From: Actinomycetes bacterium
Lineage (GTDB): Bacteria > Actinomycetota > Acidimicrobiia > Acidimicrobiales > Bog-793
Assembly (NCBI GenBank): GCA_021829645.1
Contig: JAKBPI010000005.1
Location: 338-64,337 of the forward strand
Reading direction: 5' to 3'
DNA length: 64,000 nt
Made by a program: the position numbers and the translations under genes. How positions within the stretch are numbered: the stretch's first letter is position 1; each line of letters begins with the position of its first letter. Positions 48,836-58,911 of this stretch are shown here, piece by piece. The notes below the pieces were generated by a model. That model searched no databases. It saw only the letters and a list, made by a program, of their open reading frames with translations, and was not told the DNA's origin.

Positions 48836-51505
48836 ATGGCTCACGATATCGATTACAGATTGTCAAAATCGGTTATTCCGAACCGATACGAAATAATCAT
48901 TAAACCAGATTTTTCTTCACTGACTTTCACAGGCCGCGTGGCCGTGACCGCCAATGTTACAGAAACGGCAGATGAAATTGTCATCAACGCTTTGGACTTG
49001 ACTCTTCACGAATCATATATCCTTGCCGGAGAAGTATCTCTTAGTGAAGTAGACAACAATCTTGACGAATACTCACCCATTCATTGCTCTTTACGCTATG
49101 AAACCGCCGAAGAAAGAGTGGCTCTCATATCCCCCGTAGACTTAGAGCCCAACTTGTACACTGTCTTTTATAACTTTTCGGGAATTCTGAACGATAAGCT
49201 CAGAGGATTTTATAAATCTCTCTATACGGACGAAAACGGTAAGCAACACGTCATTGCCACTACACAGTTTGAGCAAACCGACGCCAGAAGGGCATTCCCC
49301 TGTTTTGACGAGCCGGATTTCAAAGCAGTATTCTCGATCACTTTAGAAGTTCCGGAAGAAATGACCGCCGTATCTAACTCACGCGAGATCTCTTCTGTAG
49401 CAATTGACAACGGTTACAAGCGGGTATCGTTTGCAGACACAATCAAAATGTCTACTTACCTCGTAGCTTTTATAGTCGGCGAGCTAGAGGCCACCCCCTA
49501 TCAAAAAGTACGCAACACCGAAATAAGAGTCGTCTGTATCCCCGGCAAGTTACATCTGACAAAAACAGCTTTAGAAGTAGCGGAGCACGCTATAGGTTAC
49601 TTTGAAGACTATTTTGCTATCCCCTATCCCGGAGACAAACTTGATCTTTTGGCTATCCCTGACTTTGCAGCCGGAGCCATGGAAAACTTAGGGTGTGTAA
49701 CCTTTAGAGAGGCTATCCTCTTGGCCGATCCCAACAGAGCTTCCCGACCCGAATTGGAAAGACTCAGTGAAGTGGTGGAGCACGAATTGGCTCATATGTG
49801 GTTCGGCGACTTGGTAACAATGAAATGGTGGAACGGCATTTGGCTGAACGAAGCTTTTGCGACTTTCATGTCTTTGAAATGTCAAGCCGATTTCAAACCG
49901 GACTGGCGTCCTTTTGATGCTTTTGCCAGAGAAAGAGCTGCCGCGTTGAGTGTCGACGGTCTACACGGCACCAGACCTATTGAAATTGAAGTACGCCACC
50001 CGGATGACGCTGCAGCCATGTTCGACGTTCTCACCTATGAAAAAGGAGCCAGCGTACTTTGGATGATCGAACAGTATCTGGGAGAAGATAACTTCCGCTC
50101 CGGTATAAGAAACTATTTACAATTACACAAATTTAGCAATACGGAAACACACGACCTGTGGGATGCCCTAGAGGCAGAAGCCGACGACATACCTGTACGT
50201 GACATCATGAATTCTTTCATTTTCCAAGGTGGTTTACCGTTGCTTTCAGTCAAGAGGTCGGATGCCGACTCTTCGTCGGATCATCTCATTGAAATTACCC
50301 AAGAACCCTTTGCCTATTTAGAAAAAGCGGACGCAGCCCCTATAGGTCGCCTGCCGGCAAACGAAGGCGGCAAAGAATACTCTGCCATTGGCAGCACTTG
50401 GTTGATACCGGCCATCATTAGCACCGGCAATAATCTGTCTGCACCGCCTTCAAAAGCGGTCATCGGTACCGAAGCCTATGCCATGAGTACAGAAGGCGGC
50501 TTTATCGTAGCCAACAATCGGGGAACGGGCTATTATCGAGTCCGCTACGATCACTTAACAGAGAAATCTCTTTTTTCACATTGGGACTTCCTTTCCCCAT
50601 TAGAAAAATTTTGCCTTGTATCGGACATATGGAGCCTTGTCATCGCCCGAAAAGCTGACTTATCCGGTTTCATTAATTTACTGGAGTCATTAGAAAAAGA
50701 AAACGATCCTCATGTCTGGTCTGTTGCCATAGGTGCTCTTTCTCTGCTTTCCCATATCTGTTCTGAACAAGATAGACCATCCCTCCGGGACTTCATCTGT
50801 TCCGTGCTCTCACCCCAACTTGAAAAAATTGGACGCGAGCGAAGAGACGGGGAAGGAGAGGATACTCCCCTTCTTAGGTCCTCTTTGCTCGTTGCTTTGG
50901 GTAATCTGGGGGAAGAAAGCGCGACACTTGAATATAGTCGCAGTGTCTTTGCTGCAGAAAGAGCCGGGGAAGCCGAGCCCGATCACGACACCTTCTCGGG
51001 AATTTTGGATATCGTTGCGGCACATGCAACCAAGGCAGAGTTTGACTCGATTCTGGAAAGAGCCTTAAACCCTATAGATCCTCTCGACCAAAAACGCCAT
51101 CTAAACGCTCTGGCACGCGTAAGAAACTTAGAATACGCAGAAAAACTCTACGGACTCTCCCTGGATACCATCAGAAGCCAAGATGCGCCTTTCCTCTTGG
51201 GAGCTCTTCTTTCTTCCAGGGAAGTAAGCGTGTCAACATGGAGATTTATTTCAGAAAACTACGCATCCGTCTCCAAGAGATTTCCTGACAATGCTCTTGA
51301 CCGCATGCTGAGCGGTATAGGTGGTCTTGCCTGTAATCCGGAAAAAATTCATGAAGTTTCTATTGATGATATTATCGCTTTTATCAGCGAAAATGTCAAA
51401 GGCGGACGCCAACGTCTAGCTGCACAGAATCTAGAACGTCTGATAGTAAACCGCACTATGGCCTCAAGCCTCAACGATAAAATAAAGACTTATTTGCCCT
51501 CATAG
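48836..51505 (+). CDS. pepN: aminopeptidase N (M1 family)
   Basis: 889 aa with GAMEN and HELAHMWFGD(X18)E zinc motifs. Confidence 0.94.
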   Translation: MAHDIDYRLSKSVIPNRYEIIIKPDFSSLTFTGRVAVTANVTETADEIVINALDLTLHESYILAGEVSLSEVDNNLDEYSPIHCSLRYETAEERVALISPVDLEPNLYTVFYNFSGILNDKLRGFYKSLYTDENGKQHVIATTQFEQTDARRAFPCFDEPDFKAVFSITLEVPEEMTAVSNSREISSVAIDNGYKRVSFADTIKMSTYLVAFIVGELEATPYQKVRNTEIRVVCIPGKLHLTKTALEVAEHAIGYFEDYFAIPYPGDKLDLLAIPDFAAGAMENLGCVTFREAILLADPNRASRPELERLSEVVEHELAHMWFGDLVTMKWWNGIWLNEAFATFMSLKCQADFKPDWRPFDAFARERAAALSVDGLHGTRPIEIEVRHPDDAAAMFDVLTYEKGASVLWMIEQYLGEDNFRSGIRNYLQLHKFSNTETHDLWDALEAEADDIPVRDIMNSFIFQGGLPLLSVKRSDADSSSDHLIEITQEPFAYLEKADAAPIGRLPANEGGKEYSAIGSTWLIPAIISTGNNLSAPPSKAVIGTEAYAMSTEGGFIVANNRGTGYYRVRYDHLTEKSLFSHWDFLSPLEKFCLVSDIWSLVIARKADLSGFINLLESLEKENDPHVWSVAIGALSLLSHICSEQDRPSLRDFICSVLSPQLEKIGRERRDGEGEDTPLLRSSLLVALGNLGEESATLEYSRSVFAAERAGEAEPDHDTFSGILDIVAAHATKAEFDSILERALNPIDPLDQKRHLNALARVRNLEYAEKLYGLSLDTIRSQDAPFLLGALLSSREVSVSTWRFISENYASVSKRFPDNALDRMLSGIGGLACNPEKIHEVSIDDIIAFISENVKGGRQRLAAQNLERLIVNRTMASSLNDKIKTYLPS

Positions 51506-52617
51506 TCAGAAAACAACAATCTGGTCATACCTCCGCTTATGACGTCGTTGGCCAAGATGACGGCTGCAGCGGAATAAGAAGATGTTTCCCCGGGTGGAAA
51601 ACTGTTACCACCGGGGAAAACATCACCGGTCAGGTATGATCCGTCATGGAGTCTATGCCGAAAGGTTGTTGCAAAAAGCTCATTTGCTAATCGGCTATTG
51701 CCAAGACATGCTTCCGCTATGGCCCACTCTGCCGTCTCTGCGGAGGTAAACCAATCTTTATCACTGAGACATCTCACACCCCAGTCGTCAGCAATAAAAT
51801 TACTGCGTGCCGACTGTAGTCTTGCCAAACTTTCTTCCGTAATAATGGATGCAAGAATACTGTAGTAATGATCCATAGCATAAAGGTTTTTGTCGATATA
51901 ACAAGCAGAATGCCTTGCGCTTACCATATACCCTATCAGCGATTCACGCAACGCAGTGGCTGAGATGACATACGTCAACTTTTGTTTACTGATATAAAGC
52001 CGATCATAATACTTTCCGGTTACACTTAGCACAGGTACGGGTATATTGTCAGGCATAGCCAGCAGTACATCAGCTATCCTGATTGCCGACTTCAAGCTGT
52101 GGTACACAGAACACGATGCCGCAAATAAAGACTTTGGCGAGGATGCAGGAGGTGTTGATGCTCCAAACTCCAGTGTCCACGGAATGCATCCCCCCGTATC
52201 TTGCAAGCCGGTCACAAAATTGAGAGCTTTAACGACAACCGGCCACATCAGGAACAGCAAATTTTGATTCTTTGTCAGCATAAAATTGTGCAGTACGGCG
52301 CTTGCCACATAAGAGCACTGATTGGTATCCGCACTTTTATCCGACGCCACACCGTCGCTATCATACGCACAATACCACCACCCGTCAGCATTTTGTGCGG
52401 AGCGGACCCAAAGTAAAGCCTTCTCGGACTCGTTTGTGTAGCCGGCAACCGTTAGCGCCATGGCGGCTTCCAAATGGTTCCATACGTCGATAGAGCCATG
52501 CAGTGTTTTTGCTATCGCCCCTTCTTTTGTCTGCATAGACACAATTGAATTAGCGGTCTTTTGTATTTCATACTCGCTCAACAATGGAGCTGTATCTTGA
52601 TTTTCTAAATATGACAT
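51490..52617 (-). CDS. prenyltransferase/squalene-oxidase-repeat (alpha/alpha-toroid) protein
   Basis: 375 aa with a QW-type motif QNADGWW and further Q..GG / DGSY repeats. It is the last gene of the GT4-methyltransferase operon. Confidence 0.55.
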   Translation of the reverse strand: MSYLENQDTAPLLSEYEIQKTANSIVSMQTKEGAIAKTLHGSIDVWNHLEAAMALTVAGYTNESEKALLWVRSAQNADGWWYCAYDSDGVASDKSADTNQCSYVASAVLHNFMLTKNQNLLFLMWPVVVKALNFVTGLQDTGGCIPWTLEFGASTPPASSPKSLFAASCSVYHSLKSAIRIADVLLAMPDNIPVPVLSVTGKYYDRLYISKQKLTYVISATALRESLIGYMVSARHSACYIDKNLYAMDHYYSILASIITEESLARLQSARSNFIADDWGVRCLSDKDWFTSAETAEWAIAEACLGNSRLANELFATTFRHRLHDGSYLTGDVFPGGNSFPPGETSSYSAAAVILANDVISGGMTRLLFSDYEGK

Positions 52618-52621
52618 ATGC

Positions 52622-53344
52622 TTACATATCTTTTGGCATATACTTTGAATATATAACTATACTTTTACCAAGGACCGGATCTAAAATTTTTCCTATGTAT
52701 TTAAAAATAGGCGGGTGCTTTATAATCTCATACTCTAAAACTTTTTTATACGCTTTGACCGCCAAATTCTTTTCATTATCCACCCCCACTAAGCATTTCA
52801 ACCACCAGTAGGGGCTGTGCAAACCATGAACATACTCTACACTCGTGACATCAAAATTATGCCGGGACAATAAAGCAAGCAACTGTTTCTTTTTGTAAAT
52901 CCTAATATGGCCTCCTTTCACGCTATGGTACTTTTTGGACAGTGCCCAACATATCAGCTCCGGATAGAACCTTGGTACACTTATAGCCAAGACTGCACCG
53001 ACCTTCATAACTCTTGCTATCTCCGCCAACACCAAAGAGTCCTCGAAAATATGTTCCAATATCTCAGAAGCGATAACGCACTGCATGGATGCCTCCTCAA
53101 ACGGAAGGCTACTTGCGTTCCCTTGTATCAGGACAGGTAAATCTTGACCGGCGATCTCAGAACTTGCATGCATTGCCTTGTATATGCCGTCTACATACCT
53201 TAAGTCTTTAATGTCCAGATCAAAAGCAATAACTTTTTCCCCTGACTTTGACAGATAGAAGCTGTGTCTACCCTGCCCACACCCAAGATCCAAAACAGGA
53301 TCGTGGCCGTTTAAGCCAAGTTGATCTGACCTGACTGTAAGCAT
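52622..53344 (-). CDS. class I SAM-dependent methyltransferase
   Basis: SAM motif VLDLGCGQGRH and motif II VIASEILEHI. Confidence 0.85.
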   Translation of the reverse strand: MLTVRSDQLGLNGHDPVLDLGCGQGRHSFYLSKSGEKVIAFDLDIKDLRYVDGIYKAMHASSEIAGQDLPVLIQGNASSLPFEEASMQCVIASEILEHIFEDSLVLAEIARVMKVGAVLAISVPRFYPELICWALSKKYHSVKGGHIRIYKKKQLLALLSRHNFDVTSVEYVHGLHSPYWWLKCLVGVDNEKNLAVKAYKKVLEYEIIKHPPIFKYIGKILDPVLGKSIVIYSKYMPKDM

Positions 53345-53345
53345 C

Positions 53346-54611
53346 TTATCTGTTCTGTCGGTAAAAGTTAAATTGATCCATCGCGTAAAGATACTGCTCG
53401 GTTACCTTCTCAGCAGTTTTTAGCCAAGTAAAATTTTCCCTAACCCGTTGCAAACCGGCAGCAGACAATTTTTCTCTTAAGTCCTCTCTTTGCATTAGAC
53501 AAAGCATAGCATTAGCCAACGTCCCGGGATTTCCCGGCTCAACCAGCAATGCACATTGCCCGCTCTCTCCCAATACCTCCGGCAAAGCTCCGCCTGTGGT
53601 CGCTGCCACAGGCAAGCCGCTTGCCAGAGCCTGAATAGCCGGTAAAGAAAATCCTTCGTAAAGAGAAGGAATGACAGCCACTTGCGATTCTCTATATAAA
53701 TTAGCCAATTCCTCATCGGAAATACCGTGAGTAAATTGGATATGTCTTTTTAGGTTTGAATCTTTTTCCAGCATCTTGTAGCTTTGCCCTTCGGGATTTG
53801 GCTTGCCTACCACAACCAGTCGCGCTTCCGGATTTTCTTTTACGACATAGCCCATGGCTTCTATGAGAACCGCCAGTCCTTTCAAGTGGACATCTGCGCT
53901 TACCACAGCTATAAATTGGCCTTGATTCTTAAAAGTTTTTTCTCTTGGATAAAAAACTTCTGTATCTACACCGGGGTGGATAACAGTTATCTTTTTTTCT
54001 TTAACCGCCATATATTTCATAATGTCGTATTTTGAGTGTTCTGATACCGTAATGATTCTTTCCAGTTCATTAGCCACAGTTCTCTGCATAGCAGCAAATC
54101 CGTACCACCTGTATTTTCCGAGTCTGTCCTTTATAGAAGTAGTGAGTGCAAGGTCAATTTCTCTATCCACTTCTATGGGGTGATGTACAGAGGCCACTAC
54201 CGGCAAATGGTCTTTGGTTACATAAGCTATGGCGTTACCCAGGGACTGATTGTCATGCAGTACGTCAAAGGTACGCAGTTGTGCTTTTAGTTCTCTCGCC
54301 AGACGCGTCGAAAAAGTTCTCGGTTCCGGAAAACCCCCAAACAGTCTGATACCTATTTCCGCAAAATCAGTCATGCTTTCTATCTCACGTAGCCTGGGCC
54401 ATCGAAAAGGATCCTCGGATCTGTACATATCCAAGCTTGGTAACTTAACCAATTCTATACTCTCTGCCAATATTGGATACGGCTGCCCTGAGAACACAGT
54501 TACGGCATGACCAAGATCACGTAACGCTTTTGTCAGGTAGCGGGTATAGACGCCCTGTCCGCCGGAACGCGGATTACCTCTATATATACTAAAAGCTACT
54601 TTGAGTTCCAC
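53346..54611 (-). CDS. glycosyltransferase family 4 (GT-B)
   Basis: 421 aa with GTG start, an N-terminal GGQGVY motif and a C-terminal EGFSLPAIQALASGLPV E-x7-E region. Confidence 0.88.
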   Translation of the reverse strand: MELKVAFSIYRGNPRSGGQGVYTRYLTKALRDLGHAVTVFSGQPYPILAESIELVKLPSLDMYRSEDPFRWPRLREIESMTDFAEIGIRLFGGFPEPRTFSTRLARELKAQLRTFDVLHDNQSLGNAIAYVTKDHLPVVASVHHPIEVDREIDLALTTSIKDRLGKYRWYGFAAMQRTVANELERIITVSEHSKYDIMKYMAVKEKKITVIHPGVDTEVFYPREKTFKNQGQFIAVVSADVHLKGLAVLIEAMGYVVKENPEARLVVVGKPNPEGQSYKMLEKDSNLKRHIQFTHGISDEELANLYRESQVAVIPSLYEGFSLPAIQALASGLPVAATTGGALPEVLGESGQCALLVEPGNPGTLANAMLCLMQREDLREKLSAAGLQRVRENFTWLKTAEKVTEQYLYAMDQFNFYRQNR

Positions 54612-54616
54612 GGATA

Positions 54617-56263
54617 CTAGTGATGCCCTATCCCCAATTGAACGGCTTTTACCACCAGAAGAATTACTGCAGCAAGCAAATAACCTCGCATACCGAACAT
54701 GGCTACTTTTTTACTCCTTGACCAATGCGGACGCTCCAGTAGGGAAAGGGGCGGCATACGCCAAGTGAGTTTATTTTCGTTGTGAGTATCTCCTTCCACA
54801 ATGACCATTGCTGATTTAATTCTGGCACGCAAACCTACAACAAGGGCAGTGAGAACACTACCCACGATTGTGACTGCCATTGAATACATAAGTATCGATA
54901 CGTTTATATTAGGAAATATGGTAGTCGCCATGAGGACCAATGACATAGCTATTAAAATAGCTACTATAACAGCTGCCACAAGGTTCAGCCACAACTTATT
55001 CACCCATGGCCCAAGTACCGCAGTATCATTACATAGTAAAAGCAAGAATACTGTAGCACTTGGCAAAAGAACACCCGCTAATGCCTGCGCTGAAGTTGTA
55101 ATAAGTCCAAGAGGAGCGTGGGGAATGAGCACAATACCAGCGGCAGCTATGACCAAGAGCGTGAATATAGCATAAAACTGTTTGGCATCTTTGAATCCCC
55201 TATGCAAGCTATGCTTAATACCGAAAACATCGCCAAAGGCATAAGATGTAGACAGTGTGACGGCAGCGGCTCCTATGATGGATGCATTCAGGAGCACTAT
55301 AGAAAATAAGGGACCGGCACTATTACCCAAATAGTGTTCGAGGCCAGTTGCCGTTGCACCGGCATTGACAAACTGTCCAGCGAGTTTTGTGTGCAAAAAT
55401 GCAAAAGCCGTGACGACGATGATAAGCGTAGCTGCAAAAACTGTTACCAAAGAACCTAATACTGTGTCAACTCTCTCGTAGTTTATCCAACGAGGGATAA
55501 TTCTTTTATCAACGATGTTAGACTGCTGGAAAAACAGCTGCCAAGGTGCTACTGTCGTTCCTACGATTGCGATAATGAACAGAATCGAAGTCGAGTTAAT
55601 CCCGCCTTTTACACCGGGAACCACAAATCCGCGGATAATGGGTCCGACGTGTGGGTGCGCAAAAATAGCCAGTGGAATCACTAAAAAATTGGCTACTACA
55701 AAAATGAGCATAAAGCGTTCCCACCGCCTGAAACTCCCGGATGCGGTCATCGCTATCAGTGCCAAGGCAGCTATAGGCACAGAGATGTAAATACTTACTC
55801 CAAAGTAGCCGAGCGAGAGACTGATGCCAATAAACTCAGTAACAATTGTTAAAAAATTCAGCAGGAAAAGATCCCCCACAGAAAACGCTCCCCAGAATTT
55901 GCCAAATCTTTCGTTTATCAGGCGTGCATGCCCAACTCCGGTTACTGCTCCAAGCCTTACGACCATTTCTTGATTTACCACCAAGACCGGTATGAGAAGA
56001 GGCAGGACCCACAGCAGGCTAAGCCCGAAATTTTGTCCAGCCTGTGCATATGTCGCCACTCCTCCGGCGTCATTATCGCCAACCATAACTATGAGACCGG
56101 GCCCCACGATCGCTAGAAGAGTCAGCAACTTTTTTAGCCAAGTACGTCTTTCACTAGAATCGCCTATTCTTATTGTCCCGAGAGCACCTTGAATGTCACC
56201 TATATGAGCGGTATCCAAAACAGCGGTTTCGTTTTGAGATTCACCAGAGTTGATTGTTGACAT
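54617..56263 (-). CDS. NRAMP/SLC11-family transporter with NRMT-type binding-site residues
   Basis: 548 aa, polytopic. TM1 reads GPGLIVMVGDNDAGGVATY and TM6 reads IVGTTVAPWQLFFQQS, versus canonical DPGN and GATVMPH. A strong GGAGG sits before the ATG. Confidence 0.88.
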   Translation of the reverse strand: MSTINSGESQNETAVLDTAHIGDIQGALGTIRIGDSSERRTWLKKLLTLLAIVGPGLIVMVGDNDAGGVATYAQAGQNFGLSLLWVLPLLIPVLVVNQEMVVRLGAVTGVGHARLINERFGKFWGAFSVGDLFLLNFLTIVTEFIGISLSLGYFGVSIYISVPIAALALIAMTASGSFRRWERFMLIFVVANFLVIPLAIFAHPHVGPIIRGFVVPGVKGGINSTSILFIIAIVGTTVAPWQLFFQQSNIVDKRIIPRWINYERVDTVLGSLVTVFAATLIIVVTAFAFLHTKLAGQFVNAGATATGLEHYLGNSAGPLFSIVLLNASIIGAAAVTLSTSYAFGDVFGIKHSLHRGFKDAKQFYAIFTLLVIAAAGIVLIPHAPLGLITTSAQALAGVLLPSATVFLLLLCNDTAVLGPWVNKLWLNLVAAVIVAILIAMSLVLMATTIFPNINVSILMYSMAVTIVGSVLTALVVGLRARIKSAMVIVEGDTHNENKLTWRMPPLSLLERPHWSRSKKVAMFGMRGYLLAAVILLVVKAVQLGIGHH

Positions 56264-56468
56264 ATTGCCCTCCTTCCGGATAACAGAAATATTCCTGAAA
56301 GAAATCCTTTATTATGACTCAGCAACAAGGCGTTGCCGAATAAGTTTAGACTAAAAAATACCAATAACAGCAGCAATTACCTATATGGCTGAGAAGTGTT
56401 AACTTATTATTATACTAAGTTTGAAATAATTTTACCTGAAAAGAGGTGGTGACCTTTACTCAAAACTA

Positions 56469-57785
56469 TCAGTGGTCATCTGCAGCCGGTAGACCAAGAT
56501 TGCGACGAAGAGACGCTGAGTTCAAAAGGAGTTCCAGAACATCATCAAACGTGACGACACCTATGAGCTTTTGTGACTCATCCACGACAGGCAGGGCCTG
56601 TAAATTAAAATCAGACATAGTATGAAGTATCATCCCCACGTCTCCATCCGGTAGAATCGTGACGGGTTCCTGCTCGCTTGAGTCACCTAGCAGGCTTTCT
56701 TGCTCTGCCTGTAGCACGGAAACCAACGGAAGCATTCCGGTCAGTATTCCGTCTTCATCTGCTATATAAACATAGCTGAGCACTTCCGGTGACAGATCAC
56801 TGTTTCTAATCATATCCAGTACGGTACCGACCGTATCATGAGCTTTTGCCTGCAAGAAATCGGGATTCATTAAGCCCCCTGCTGTTTCAGGGTGGTAATG
56901 GAGTAGATTTCGTACTTTATCACGCTGATCCGCAGGCAAAGCTTCCAACAGAGGAAGTCTCTGATCCTGATCAAGGTCAGCAATCAAATCGGCGGCATCG
57001 TCCGGAGCCATTCGGGAAAGAACTCGCGCTGCCTCTATTTCGGATTTTGATTCCATGAACTCACGTTGATGTTCCGGGTCAAGCTCTTCAAAGACATCTG
57101 CTTCTAAGTCCCTGTCATGGCCCACGGCTTCTATAATTTCTTCCCCTTCTTCGTGTGATGCAGCTTCCACCAAGTCGGCTATCTGAGCTGGGCGCAGTCT
57201 TGCCAAAGCCCTGTAAGGTAGCCTGAGTCTTGCCGTTGGTACATGACCTACAAACGGTTCGACATCCGACCAATCGATCAGGGTATTGCCGGTACGTTTT
57301 CGCTTTGTCAATTTTCTGTAGAGATAACCAATTGGAGACGAAGCCACCGGTTCGGCACCAAGCAGTACATAACCTTGACCGTAATGACCCATTTCTATAT
57401 CTCTTGCTTTAAGGAGCCGTGCTTTGCTCAGATGGATCAGGTGTCTGCCCGCTACGTCGCGGGCCAACAAAAGTTCGCCTGGCCTGCGTTCAAATTGCTT
57501 TAAATTCACGGAGTCCCGGGCAAGCTCAACTCTGCTTTCCTTTATTTCACGTACTCTTTCAATGGGAATAAAGAGCTCACGATGGCCTATTTGACCCACA
57601 ATTCCGGCAATTGGAGGGTGCGTTTCGCCGCCTGGTCTTACTACTATATCTTTGACTTTACCAAGCTTGTCACCTTGTGAATCTACCAGATGACTTCCCA
57701 CCAAGCGAGAAAGCTTGATACGAGGTCCGGAAATTTCAACAATGTTTTGCTTAGATGCCTTGGGCTGTAAAGTCGTCACACTCAT
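56469..57785 (-). CDS. PRC-barrel + MgtE N-domain + CBS-pair protein lacking a membrane pore
   Basis: PRC-like LVGSHLVDSQGDKLGKVKDIVV and MgtE_N-like MAPDDAADLIADL...LLHYHPETAGGLMNPDF, followed by two CBS motifs. The ORF ends at 438 aa with no TM helices. Confidence 0.8.
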   Translation of the reverse strand: MSVTTLQPKASKQNIVEISGPRIKLSRLVGSHLVDSQGDKLGKVKDIVVRPGGETHPPIAGIVGQIGHRELFIPIERVREIKESRVELARDSVNLKQFERRPGELLLARDVAGRHLIHLSKARLLKARDIEMGHYGQGYVLLGAEPVASSPIGYLYRKLTKRKRTGNTLIDWSDVEPFVGHVPTARLRLPYRALARLRPAQIADLVEAASHEEGEEIIEAVGHDRDLEADVFEELDPEHQREFMESKSEIEAARVLSRMAPDDAADLIADLDQDQRLPLLEALPADQRDKVRNLLHYHPETAGGLMNPDFLQAKAHDTVGTVLDMIRNSDLSPEVLSYVYIADEDGILTGMLPLVSVLQAEQESLLGDSSEQEPVTILPDGDVGMILHTMSDFNLQALPVVDESQKLIGVVTFDDVLELLLNSASLRRNLGLPAADDH

Positions 57786-57852
57786 ATATTAGACGATTGC
57801 ATAAAAATTTTCATGTCTAGACAGAGTTTCGTTTCAAGGCTAGACTTATCAT

Positions 57853-58911
57853 ATGCGCTACAAAACTTTAGGAAGCACCGGCATGAAGGTATCCGAGTAC
57901 TGTCTCGGAGCAATGATGTTCGGCAAATGGGGAAATCAGGATACGGCAGACTGTATAAGAATTATAGACTACGCCTTAGATCACGGCATAAATTTCATTG
58001 ACACGGCAGACGTATACTCCGGAGGAGAATCTGAAGAGATAGTCGGTAAGGCAATTGCAGGAAAAAGAGATGCTATTATCCTGGCCACTAAAGTCCATGG
58101 CTCCATGGGGGATGATATCAACGAAGGTGGAAATTCCAGAAGATGGATTACCCGCGAAGTCGAAGCGAGTTTGAAAAGACTCGGTACCGACTACATAGAC
58201 CTTTACCAAATACATAGGCCGGATCCGACAACAGATATCGCTGAAACTCTTTCCGCTTTGACAGATTTAGTTCACCAAGGTAAAATACGTTCTTTTGGAT
58301 CCTCCACATTTGATCCAGAACTCATTGTAGAAGCACAGTGGATAGCTCAGCAACGTCATTTAGAACGCTTTATATGTGAACAGCCGCCTTATTCGTTACT
58401 CACAAGAGGCATAGAACGTTCGATACTTCCTACATGCCAAAAATACAACATGGGTGCAATAGTCTGGTCGCCGCTGGCAGGAGGATGGCTGAGCGGTAAA
58501 TATACCAAATTCGAAGACATAGATCTCTCACAAGGAAGAGCTGCCAGGCTGCCAGCCAGATTTGATCCCTCTATTCCGGGAAACAAACTCAAGTTAGAAA
58601 AAGTCTCTGCCCTTGCTTCCCTGGCCGTTCAGGCAGCCATGCCTCTTACACACATGGCCGTGAGCTTCACTCTTTCGCATCCCGGGGTTACGGCAGCCAT
58701 AATCGGCCCGCGTACCATGGATCAACTTGAAGACATCCTACGAGGTGTCGATCTAGAATTGGACGATTCACTCTTGGACGAAATTGATAAAGTGGTAGCC
58801 CCCGGAGAAAACCTCAACGAAGCAGACTCCGGCTGGAAGCCTCCGTCGCTGACAAATCCTGGGTTGAGAAGAAAAAATCCAAACTTCTCAGCGTCAAAAA
58901 GTTACTTTTAA
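57853..58911 (+). CDS. aldo/keto reductase
   Basis: Motifs INFIDTADVYSGGESEEIVG and IDLYQIHRPD, with an AKR-like fold throughout. Confidence 0.92.
   Translation: MRYKTLGSTGMKVSEYCLGAMMFGKWGNQDTADCIRIIDYALDHGINFIDTADVYSGGESEEIVGKAIAGKRDAIILATKVHGSMGDDINEGGNSRRWITREVEASLKRLGTDYIDLYQIHRPDPTTDIAETLSALTDLVHQGKIRSFGSSTFDPELIVEAQWIAQQRHLERFICEQPPYSLLTRGIERSILPTCQKYNMGAIVWSPLAGGWLSGKYTKFEDIDLSQGRAARLPARFDPSIPGNKLKLEKVSALASLAVQAAMPLTHMAVSFTLSHPGVTAAIIGPRTMDQLEDILRGVDLELDDSLLDEIDKVVAPGENLNEADSGWKPPSLTNPGLRRKNPNFSASKSYF

Follow-up and report, generated by a model that had tools for sequence, protein, structure and literature searches.

Most genes of the NrmT group of transporters adjoin a gene related by homology to MgtE's N-terminal cytoplasmic domain, and it has been speculated that this MgtE-like fragment acts in the cytoplasm as a feedback regulator or as a metal chaperone (Shin et al. 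2014, PLoS Genet 10:e1004429, PMC4072509). Here we examine such a gene pair in a 64,000-nucleotide stretch of an Acidimicrobiales genome (GenBank assembly GCA_021829645.1, contig JAKBPI010000005.1; the stretch is hereafter called the window, and its source the window genome). In it, a gene for an NRAMP-related magnesium transporter (NRMT; 54617..56263, reverse strand, 548 aa) lies 205 bp downstream of, and on the same strand as, a gene for a soluble MgtE-like partner (56469..57785, reverse strand, 438 aa). The locus is a two-gene module of the 'mgtE-like fragment + nrmT' type and a new example of a known operon type. The explanation towards which we lean, with somewhat more confidence than doubt, is that an uncoupled Mg2+/Mn2+ carrier is restrained by a detached MgtE-type Mg2+ sensor.

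The closest characterized relatives of the two proteins are EleNRMT and the MgtE channel. The roles of individual residues at the EleNRMT metal site have been described; Thr224 is critical for Mg2+, its mutation having abolished Mg2+ but not Mn2+ transport, and the protein also carries Mn2+ (Ramanadane et al. 2022, eLife 11:e74589). The partner is not discussed in that paper. The Mg2+ sites of T. thermophilus MgtE include Mg4 (D91/D247), Mg5 (D226/D250), Mg6 (D95) and Mg7 (E59) (PMC5882242), and its ATP pocket contains Y170, R187, D188, N203, V207 and F227 (PMC5529423).

The transporter belongs to the NRMT clade

The transporter combines an 11-transmembrane (TM) core like that of EleNRMT with a C-terminal extension. 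Pfam Nramp matches residues 69-423 (E 5e-77; 260 bits), and among all PDB sequences EleNRMT (7qia) is the top match (222 bits, E 1.3e-64); the runner-up, Bacteroides fragilis MntH, scores 81 bits, and no other canonical NRAMP exceeds about 55 bits.

The metal site was compared in a MAFFT alignment of EleNRMT, ScaDMT, SiNRAT, B. fragilis MntH and 29 Nramp-family proteins from related genomes. TM1 reads VGDNDAGGVAT (motif N64-D65-A66-G67-G68 at 56060..56074, reverse strand), the canonical DPGN having become DAGG with Gly68 in place of Asn. TM6 reads GTTVAPW (G235-T236-T237-V238-A239-P240-W241 at 55541..55561, reverse strand) where canonical proteins have GA.VMPH; Thr236 stands in place of the canonical Ala, Ala239 in place of Met and Trp241 in place of His. 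Residues D65 and G68 align with D55 and G58 of EleNRMT, T236 and A239 with T224 and A227, E143 and Q393 with E133 and Q379, and W241 with the Trp found at the position of the first helix-6b His. Neither of the two helix-6b His positions is occupied by His in the window transporter (W241, Q248). On this alignment the TM1 and TM6 motif positions are homologous to the canonical sites and not chance look-alikes; the transporter shares the enlarged, Met-less, Thr-containing metal site of EleNRMT and is without the histidines of helix 6b on which proton coupling relies.

Phylogeny and fold agree with the motifs. In a maximum-likelihood tree, a branch with 100/100 support parts the NRAMP-related groups from ScaDMT, SiNRAT and B. 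fragilis MntH, the group containing EleNRMT and the window transporter has 93/93 support, and the window transporter falls within a 100/100 subclade in which every member carries a C-terminal extension of ~100 residues. The AlphaFold2 (AF2) model (predicted local distance difference test, pLDDT, 88.1; predicted template-modelling score 0.89) has the SLC11/NRAMP (LeuT-type) fold, with template-modelling scores (TM-scores) of 0.83-0.90 against EleNRMT and DraNramp; EleNRMT is the top fold match, at 0.89-0.90. Motifs, phylogeny and fold thus fully support the placement of the 548-aa transporter in the NRMT clade.

EleNRMT ends at about residue 445 of the window transporter, and the extension (residues 450-548; 54620..54916, reverse strand), delimited by hydropathy, AF2 helices and alignment to EleNRMT, contains two extra TM helices predicted by hydropathy and AF2 at residues 455-487 and 516-546. 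Between these helices lies a conserved basic loop, W-R-M-P-P-L-S-L-L-E-R-P, which is probably cytosolic. We considered the extension as a docking site for the partner, but both it and its W-x-M-P motif are kept in long-form homologues, including partner-less ones controlled by an M-box, which weakens this reading; the extension is probably not simply a partner docking site. Homology of the extension to DUF1003 or to the membrane domain found in 600-aa fused partners was also rejected (hhalign probability <1%; see below for both). Long-form NRMTs further share a conserved N-terminal cytosolic motif, A-V-L-D-x-A-H-x-G-D-I-x-G-A-F-G-T-I-R, which is modelled as a beta-hairpin (NRMT residues 17-33 in the window, 56165-56215, reverse strand) and has no counterpart in the aligned part of EleNRMT.

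The partner is an MgtE-type sensor module lacking the pore

The partner was characterized with Pfam, NCBIfam, PDB searches, AF2 and Foldseek. Pfam places a PRC domain at residues 23-85, MgtE_N at 197-300 and a pair of CBS domains that extends to residue 421, and the AF2 model (pLDDT 87.9) resolves the chain into a PRC barrel (23-88), a second beta domain (107-177), a helical MgtE_N domain (191-295) and a CBS pair (302-422). Only positions 28-255 of the 450 in the NCBIfam mgtE model are matched, which correspond to the cytosolic part, and the PDB sequence matches are MgtE cytosolic domains. In Foldseek comparisons, crystal structures of these domains match the final ~235 residues of the partner with TM-scores of 0.86-0.91 and root-mean-square deviations (RMSD) of 1.7-2.0 Å. 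Hydropathy revealed no hydrophobic or membrane segment in the partner, and it has neither a plug helix nor the five-helix pore (PF01769, with its Mg1 Asp), the chain stopping 14 residues past the CBS pair. In structure the partner is thus the cytosolic sensor of MgtE, made up of the N domain and the CBS pair, behind two beta domains.

Alignment with MgtE gives acidic residues in the partner at Mg4 (D262/D415), Mg6 (D266) and Mg7 (D230), and the same three sites are acidic in nearly all members of the partner family examined. To judge from these residues, the cytosolic inter-domain Mg2+ sites are retained.

The initial annotation, which was made from the DNA letters alone, had read the locus as an NRAMP homologue with an NRMT-like site next to a pore-less PRC + MgtE_N + CBS protein. 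Both open reading frames (ORFs), the motifs and the domains lie where it had placed them, as judged from ORF positions, Pfam and alignments. The four substitutions on which it relied (Asn to Gly, Ala to Thr, Met to Ala and His to Trp) hold in the alignment to EleNRMT, ScaDMT, B. fragilis MntH and SiNRAT, and its NRMT assignment is upheld by motifs, phylogeny and fold; neither Asn nor Met occupies its canonical position and the protein does not cluster with MntH. Its description of the partner agrees with Pfam, NCBIfam, fold and hydropathy.

The retained sites also bear on the second role raised by Shin et al. (PMC4072509), in which the MgtE-like protein would be a metal chaperone or buffer taking Mg2+ or Mn2+ from the cytosolic exit of the transporter. 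The partner is indeed rich in acidic residues and has kept several metal sites. Free Mg2+ in cells is millimolar, however, and at such concentrations a chaperone is hard to justify. Moreover, the retained sites are low-affinity inter-domain sites that serve as a conformational switch in MgtE (PMC5882242). We regard the chaperone role as very improbable.

The gene pair is conserved across phyla

We searched a phylum sample of 301 Actinomycetota genomes with both proteins, counting transporters that scored 170 bits or more as NRMT-like. An MgtE-like gene lies within 750 bp of 57 of the 75 NRMT-like genes and of none of the 38 more distant Nramp homologues (Fisher p 1.2e-16), and in the 57 adjacent pairs it is nearly always upstream and on the same strand. 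A second scan, with one genome per GTDB species, yielded 80 long-form NRMT loci, 74 of them with enough upstream sequence to be assessed; the partner is present at 67 of these 74 and is upstream on the same strand in 63. Within the phylum, long-form loci occur in Acidimicrobiales, Solirubrobacterales, Mycobacterium, Streptosporangiaceae, Rhodococcus and Streptomyces, and outside it in Alicyclobacillus, Ktedonobacterales, Dormibacterota, Verrucomicrobiia and one metagenome-assembled genome labelled Roseiarcus. The linkage of partner and NRMT is conserved far beyond the window genome.

These neighbourhood statistics (57/75 against 0/38, and 67/74) bear out the adjacency from which the initial annotation had argued. 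Its belief that the pairing had not been described was wrong, as the pairing was already published by Shin et al. (2014; PMC4072509).

M-box riboswitches mark relatives but not the window

No M-box was found in the window or in the whole window genome by Rfam scan or with an nhmmer M-box profile. In the range 54000-58500 there is no credible Rfam match at E<=1, the sole match being a chance-level miRNA (E 0.53) inside the NRMT coding region, and an M-box or other riboswitch in the window was rejected on the Rfam search at this threshold, the genome-wide Rfam scan and the nhmmer profile. In front of the operons described in 2014, an M-box is frequent but not obligatory. The spacer between the two genes (56264..56468, reverse strand, 205 bp) ends in the ribosome-binding site GGAAGGAGG and contains neither a leader ORF nor an acidic mini-ORF of the M-D-D-D-P type; no significant RNA structure was detected in it (fold z-score -0.56). 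Apart from the ribosome-binding site, only one 12-nt block of the spacer, TTTAGTCTAAAC, is conserved with close relatives, comparison with which places the block at 56325-56345 (reverse strand). It is identical in the relatives with 91% and 84% identity and partly kept in a GC-rich relative with 76%, while the remaining spacer diverges; this block could be a regulator-binding site.

The situation is different in L046, a close relative whose orthologue has 76% identity to the window transporter and is its sister in the tree (support 1.00). There, a 493-bp spacer carries an M-box (118 bits) directly before the NRMT gene. Across the 301 Actinomycetota genomes, about 16 of 23 M-boxes, by a reading of the listed positions, are directly upstream of NRMT or partner-NRMT operons, and this placement ties the clade to Mg2+. 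Among long-form NRMTs, an M-box stands directly upstream of 9 of the 10 partner-less genes but of only 2 of the 67 partner-bearing loci (p 3e-9), a distribution that would fit partner and riboswitch as alternative Mg2+-responsive brakes.

Six further M-boxes (L090:5234-5407, L093:5206-5416, L104:7080-7246, L083:7054-7220, L076:7116-7273 and L082:1400-1567) are just downstream of, or face away from, partner-bearing NRMT operons, and their presumed target is a gene nearby. In relatives from Streptosporangiaceae and Mycobacterium, this arrangement points to larger clusters for Mg2+ homeostasis.

Magnesium or manganese

The window genome (2.1 Mb, ~94% complete) contains no CorA, no MgtE pore domain (PF01769) and no MgtA-type ATPase above threshold. 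It does encode one CNNM/CorC protein, a family usually tied to efflux. The window NRMT is the only Mg2+ importer recognisable from sequence in this genome.

A second NRAMP-related protein of 433 aa is encoded elsewhere in the same genome (L002:1336-2637; contig C36:128243-129262). Its TM1 reads A-D-T-D-I-G-S and its TM6 G-A-V-I-M-P-W, so that Met is kept and His is replaced by Trp; it has Glu at the position equivalent to Q379 and no MgtE-like neighbour, and two other genomes encode similar proteins that join it in a clade with 100/100 support. This paralogue may be a Mn2+ importer, apparently without the His residues for proton coupling.

If the pair were mainly a Mn2+ (transition-metal) uptake system, the MgtE-like protein would answer Mn2+ or some other cue. 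The Acidobacterium capsulatum pair, which likewise lacks an M-box, gave full Mn2+ rescue and Mg2+ rescue only at millimolar Mg2+ (PMC4072509), and EleNRMT carries Mn2+ too. Nevertheless, the window transporter has the full EleNRMT signature including Thr236, its sister orthologue in L046 is under M-box control, and the paralogue with its soft-metal Met (GAVIMPW) is the better Mn2+ candidate in a genome with no other recognisable Mg2+ importer. A primarily Mn2+ role for the pair therefore seems to us quite improbable.

The partner family also occurs beside other membrane proteins

PRC-MgtE_N-CBS genes are also found in three contexts in which a DUF1003 gene follows, overlapping or abutting (L006:3338-6423, L007:4734-7741 and L014:4247-5955); in L006 and L007 a gene for a Mrp/ParA-type (NUBPL-like) ATPase comes after the DUF1003 gene. 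The proteins in question resemble the window partner in their three-part soluble architecture, with 27-31% full-length identity and the Mg-site residues retained, and differ in having DUF1003 instead of NRMT as the membrane neighbour. We found no literature linking DUF1003 with MgtE, and no DUF1003 in the window genome.

Other members of the family are fused to a membrane domain. Variants of 600-614 aa (L004:1476-3320 and L005:2590-4392) consist of PRC, MgtE_N and CBS domains followed by a C-terminal domain of ~190 residues that contains four or five hydrophobic helices and matches nothing in Pfam, the MgtE pore model included; both are directly upstream of short (420-440 aa) NRMT genes. Such fusions are common in the phylum sample, with open frames of up to 600-680 aa.

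These observations bear on whether the MgtE-like protein acts elsewhere, as a general cytosolic Mg2+-responsive module that is beside nrmT only through shared Mg2+ homeostasis and co-expression. Family members without an NRMT, beside DUF1003 and the Mrp/ParA-type ATPase, would be expected if this were so; in addition, the 205-bp spacer may hold a separate nrmT promoter (a weak consensus match), the L046 M-box controls nrmT and not the partner gene, and co-expression had no effect in the 2014 test (PMC4072509). On the other hand, the linkage is tight and directional across phyla (upstream and on the same strand at 63/74 assessable loci), and some variants fused to their own membrane anchor stand directly before nrmT. 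Moreover, every context seen has either a membrane-protein gene adjoining the PRC-MgtE_N-CBS member or a membrane domain fused to it, in keeping with a regulator at the membrane. We consider a target elsewhere unlikely.

A broader proposal is that the PRC-MgtE_N-CBS protein serves as a portable sensor of Mg2+ for unrelated membrane proteins, on which it would act in trans, that it stands in for the M-box among long-form NRMTs and that it is the sole dedicated Mg2+ homeostat of the window genome. We put this forward tentatively, as possible but rather doubtful.

A detached sensor as a proposed brake on the carrier

It is plausible, as the initial annotation had suggested, that the MgtE-type module regulates the transporter. 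In the mechanism that we favour, that of a carrier restrained by a detached sensor, the transporter would bring in hydrated Mg2+, as well as Mn2+, driven by the membrane potential and with no co-transport of H+, by analogy with the biochemistry of EleNRMT. It would probably be the main Mg2+ importer of the cell, because the genome lacks CorA, an MgtE pore, an MgtA-type ATPase and an M-box. At high cytosolic Mg2+, occupation of Mg4, Mg6 and Mg7 would clamp the N and CBS domains of the partner together, and the clamped partner might then bind the transporter, perhaps via its PRC-type beta domains, and slow uptake. The outcome would be protein-level feedback in a lineage that lost the riboswitch still present in its close relative L046.

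Several points weigh against this mechanism. In the only published test, the A. capsulatum pair (Acp2976/2977) was expressed in B. subtilis, and co-expression of the partner left growth rescue unchanged; in addition, rescue by the transporter was better for a Mn2+ defect than for a Mg2+ defect, and it behaved mainly as a Mn2+ transporter (PMC4072509). Within the partner, Mg5 is only half kept (N394, E418), and nothing in it corresponds to the plug-helix sites Mg2 and Mg3. Nor is the ATP pocket of MgtE conserved (R187V, D188S, N203E, F227L), and ATP sensing in the manner of MgtE was rejected on this ground. Because PRC-MgtE_N-CBS genes also adjoin DUF1003 genes with no NRMT nearby, the target of the partner need not be NRMT. 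Given that the genome is ~94% complete, a further Mg2+ transporter may have been missed. Finally, the partner-less genes form one clade and two basal branches in the tree, amounting to few independent events, and M-box and partner co-occur in short-form clades; for these two reasons the trade-off between M-box and partner, which might have been taken as strong evidence of equal function, was downgraded to weak support.

If the partner does gate an NRAMP-fold carrier, it would be a clear case in which the ligand-sensing domain of a channel became a separate protein and was put to new use, in trans, on an unrelated transporter, and a gene pair that is conserved across many phyla and has been unexplained since 2014 would be explained. 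The locus itself adds nothing fundamental; it is a clean example. Because it is riboswitch-free and belongs to a small genome in which NRMT is apparently the sole Mg2+ importer, it is a reasonable candidate for biochemistry of partner function.

Neighbouring genes and divergent Nramp homologues

Upstream of the partner gene, 67 bp separate it from a divergent aldo-keto reductase gene, and no acidic mini-ORF leader is present there. Downstream of the NRMT gene (51490-54611, reverse strand) are genes for a family 4 glycosyltransferase (GT4), an S-adenosylmethionine-dependent methyltransferase and a 375-aa protein with no Pfam match, separated by gaps of 5, 1 and 4 nt. The resulting five-gene block is kept in L042, L044 and L046 (91%, 84% and 76% identity), also in cases in which the outer flanks are not the same. 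The glycosyltransferase, methyltransferase and toroid-protein genes were nonetheless rejected as part of the Mg2+ module; this synteny is lineage-specific, because the genes are linked in only ~5 of the 80 long-form loci.

Two Nramp homologues of one actinobacterial family (L028:303-1529 and L032:262-1557) lack the universally conserved TM1 Asp, reading F-I-G-P-G-T where canonical proteins have D-P-G-N, and branch with canonical NRAMPs in the tree.

Comparison with known systems

With EleNRMT (PDB 7qia, 7qic, 7qji and 7qjj) the window transporter shares the metal-site D, G, T and A, the Trp at the first helix-6b His, the equivalents of E133 and Q379, and its supergroup in the tree. The two proteins differ in that they belong to separate subclades (BLAST and alignment identities are about 31-41% for the branch), that EleNRMT has 11 TMs in 438 aa whereas 13 TMs are predicted in the 548 aa of the window transporter, and that the second helix-6b His is Asn in EleNRMT and Gln here. 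The window transporter also adds the conserved N-terminal beta-hairpin.

The partner resembles the T. thermophilus MgtE channel (2yvy, 2zy9 and 5x9g; Hattori 2007/2009, Tomita 2017, Maruyama 2018) in the fold of the N domain and CBS pair (RMSD ~2 Å over ~235 residues) and in the conserved acidic sites Mg4 (D91/D247), Mg6 (D95) and Mg7 (E59). Unlike the channel, it has no plug helix or TM pore, leaving Mg1, Mg2 and Mg3 without counterparts; its ATP-binding residues, F227 among them, are replaced, beta domains are added at its N terminus, and any action on the carrier, an unrelated protein, would have to be in trans.

The closest precedents are the operons of Shin et al. (2014). The window partner differs from theirs in having ~190 extra N-terminal residues (the PRC barrel and second beta domain), which are unmentioned in the 2014 paper, and the window locus differs in the two-TM C-terminal extension of its transporter, in its 205-bp spacer and in the three biosynthetic-looking genes that follow at gaps of 1-5 nt. 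The essential arrangement is nonetheless the same: in these operons, which include C. acetobutylicum Ca_c0685 and A. capsulatum Acp2976/Acp2977, the latter pair without an M-box as in the window, an NRAMP-related, Mg-associated outgroup transporter stands beside an MgtE N-domain + CBS gene that is usually upstream and co-directional.

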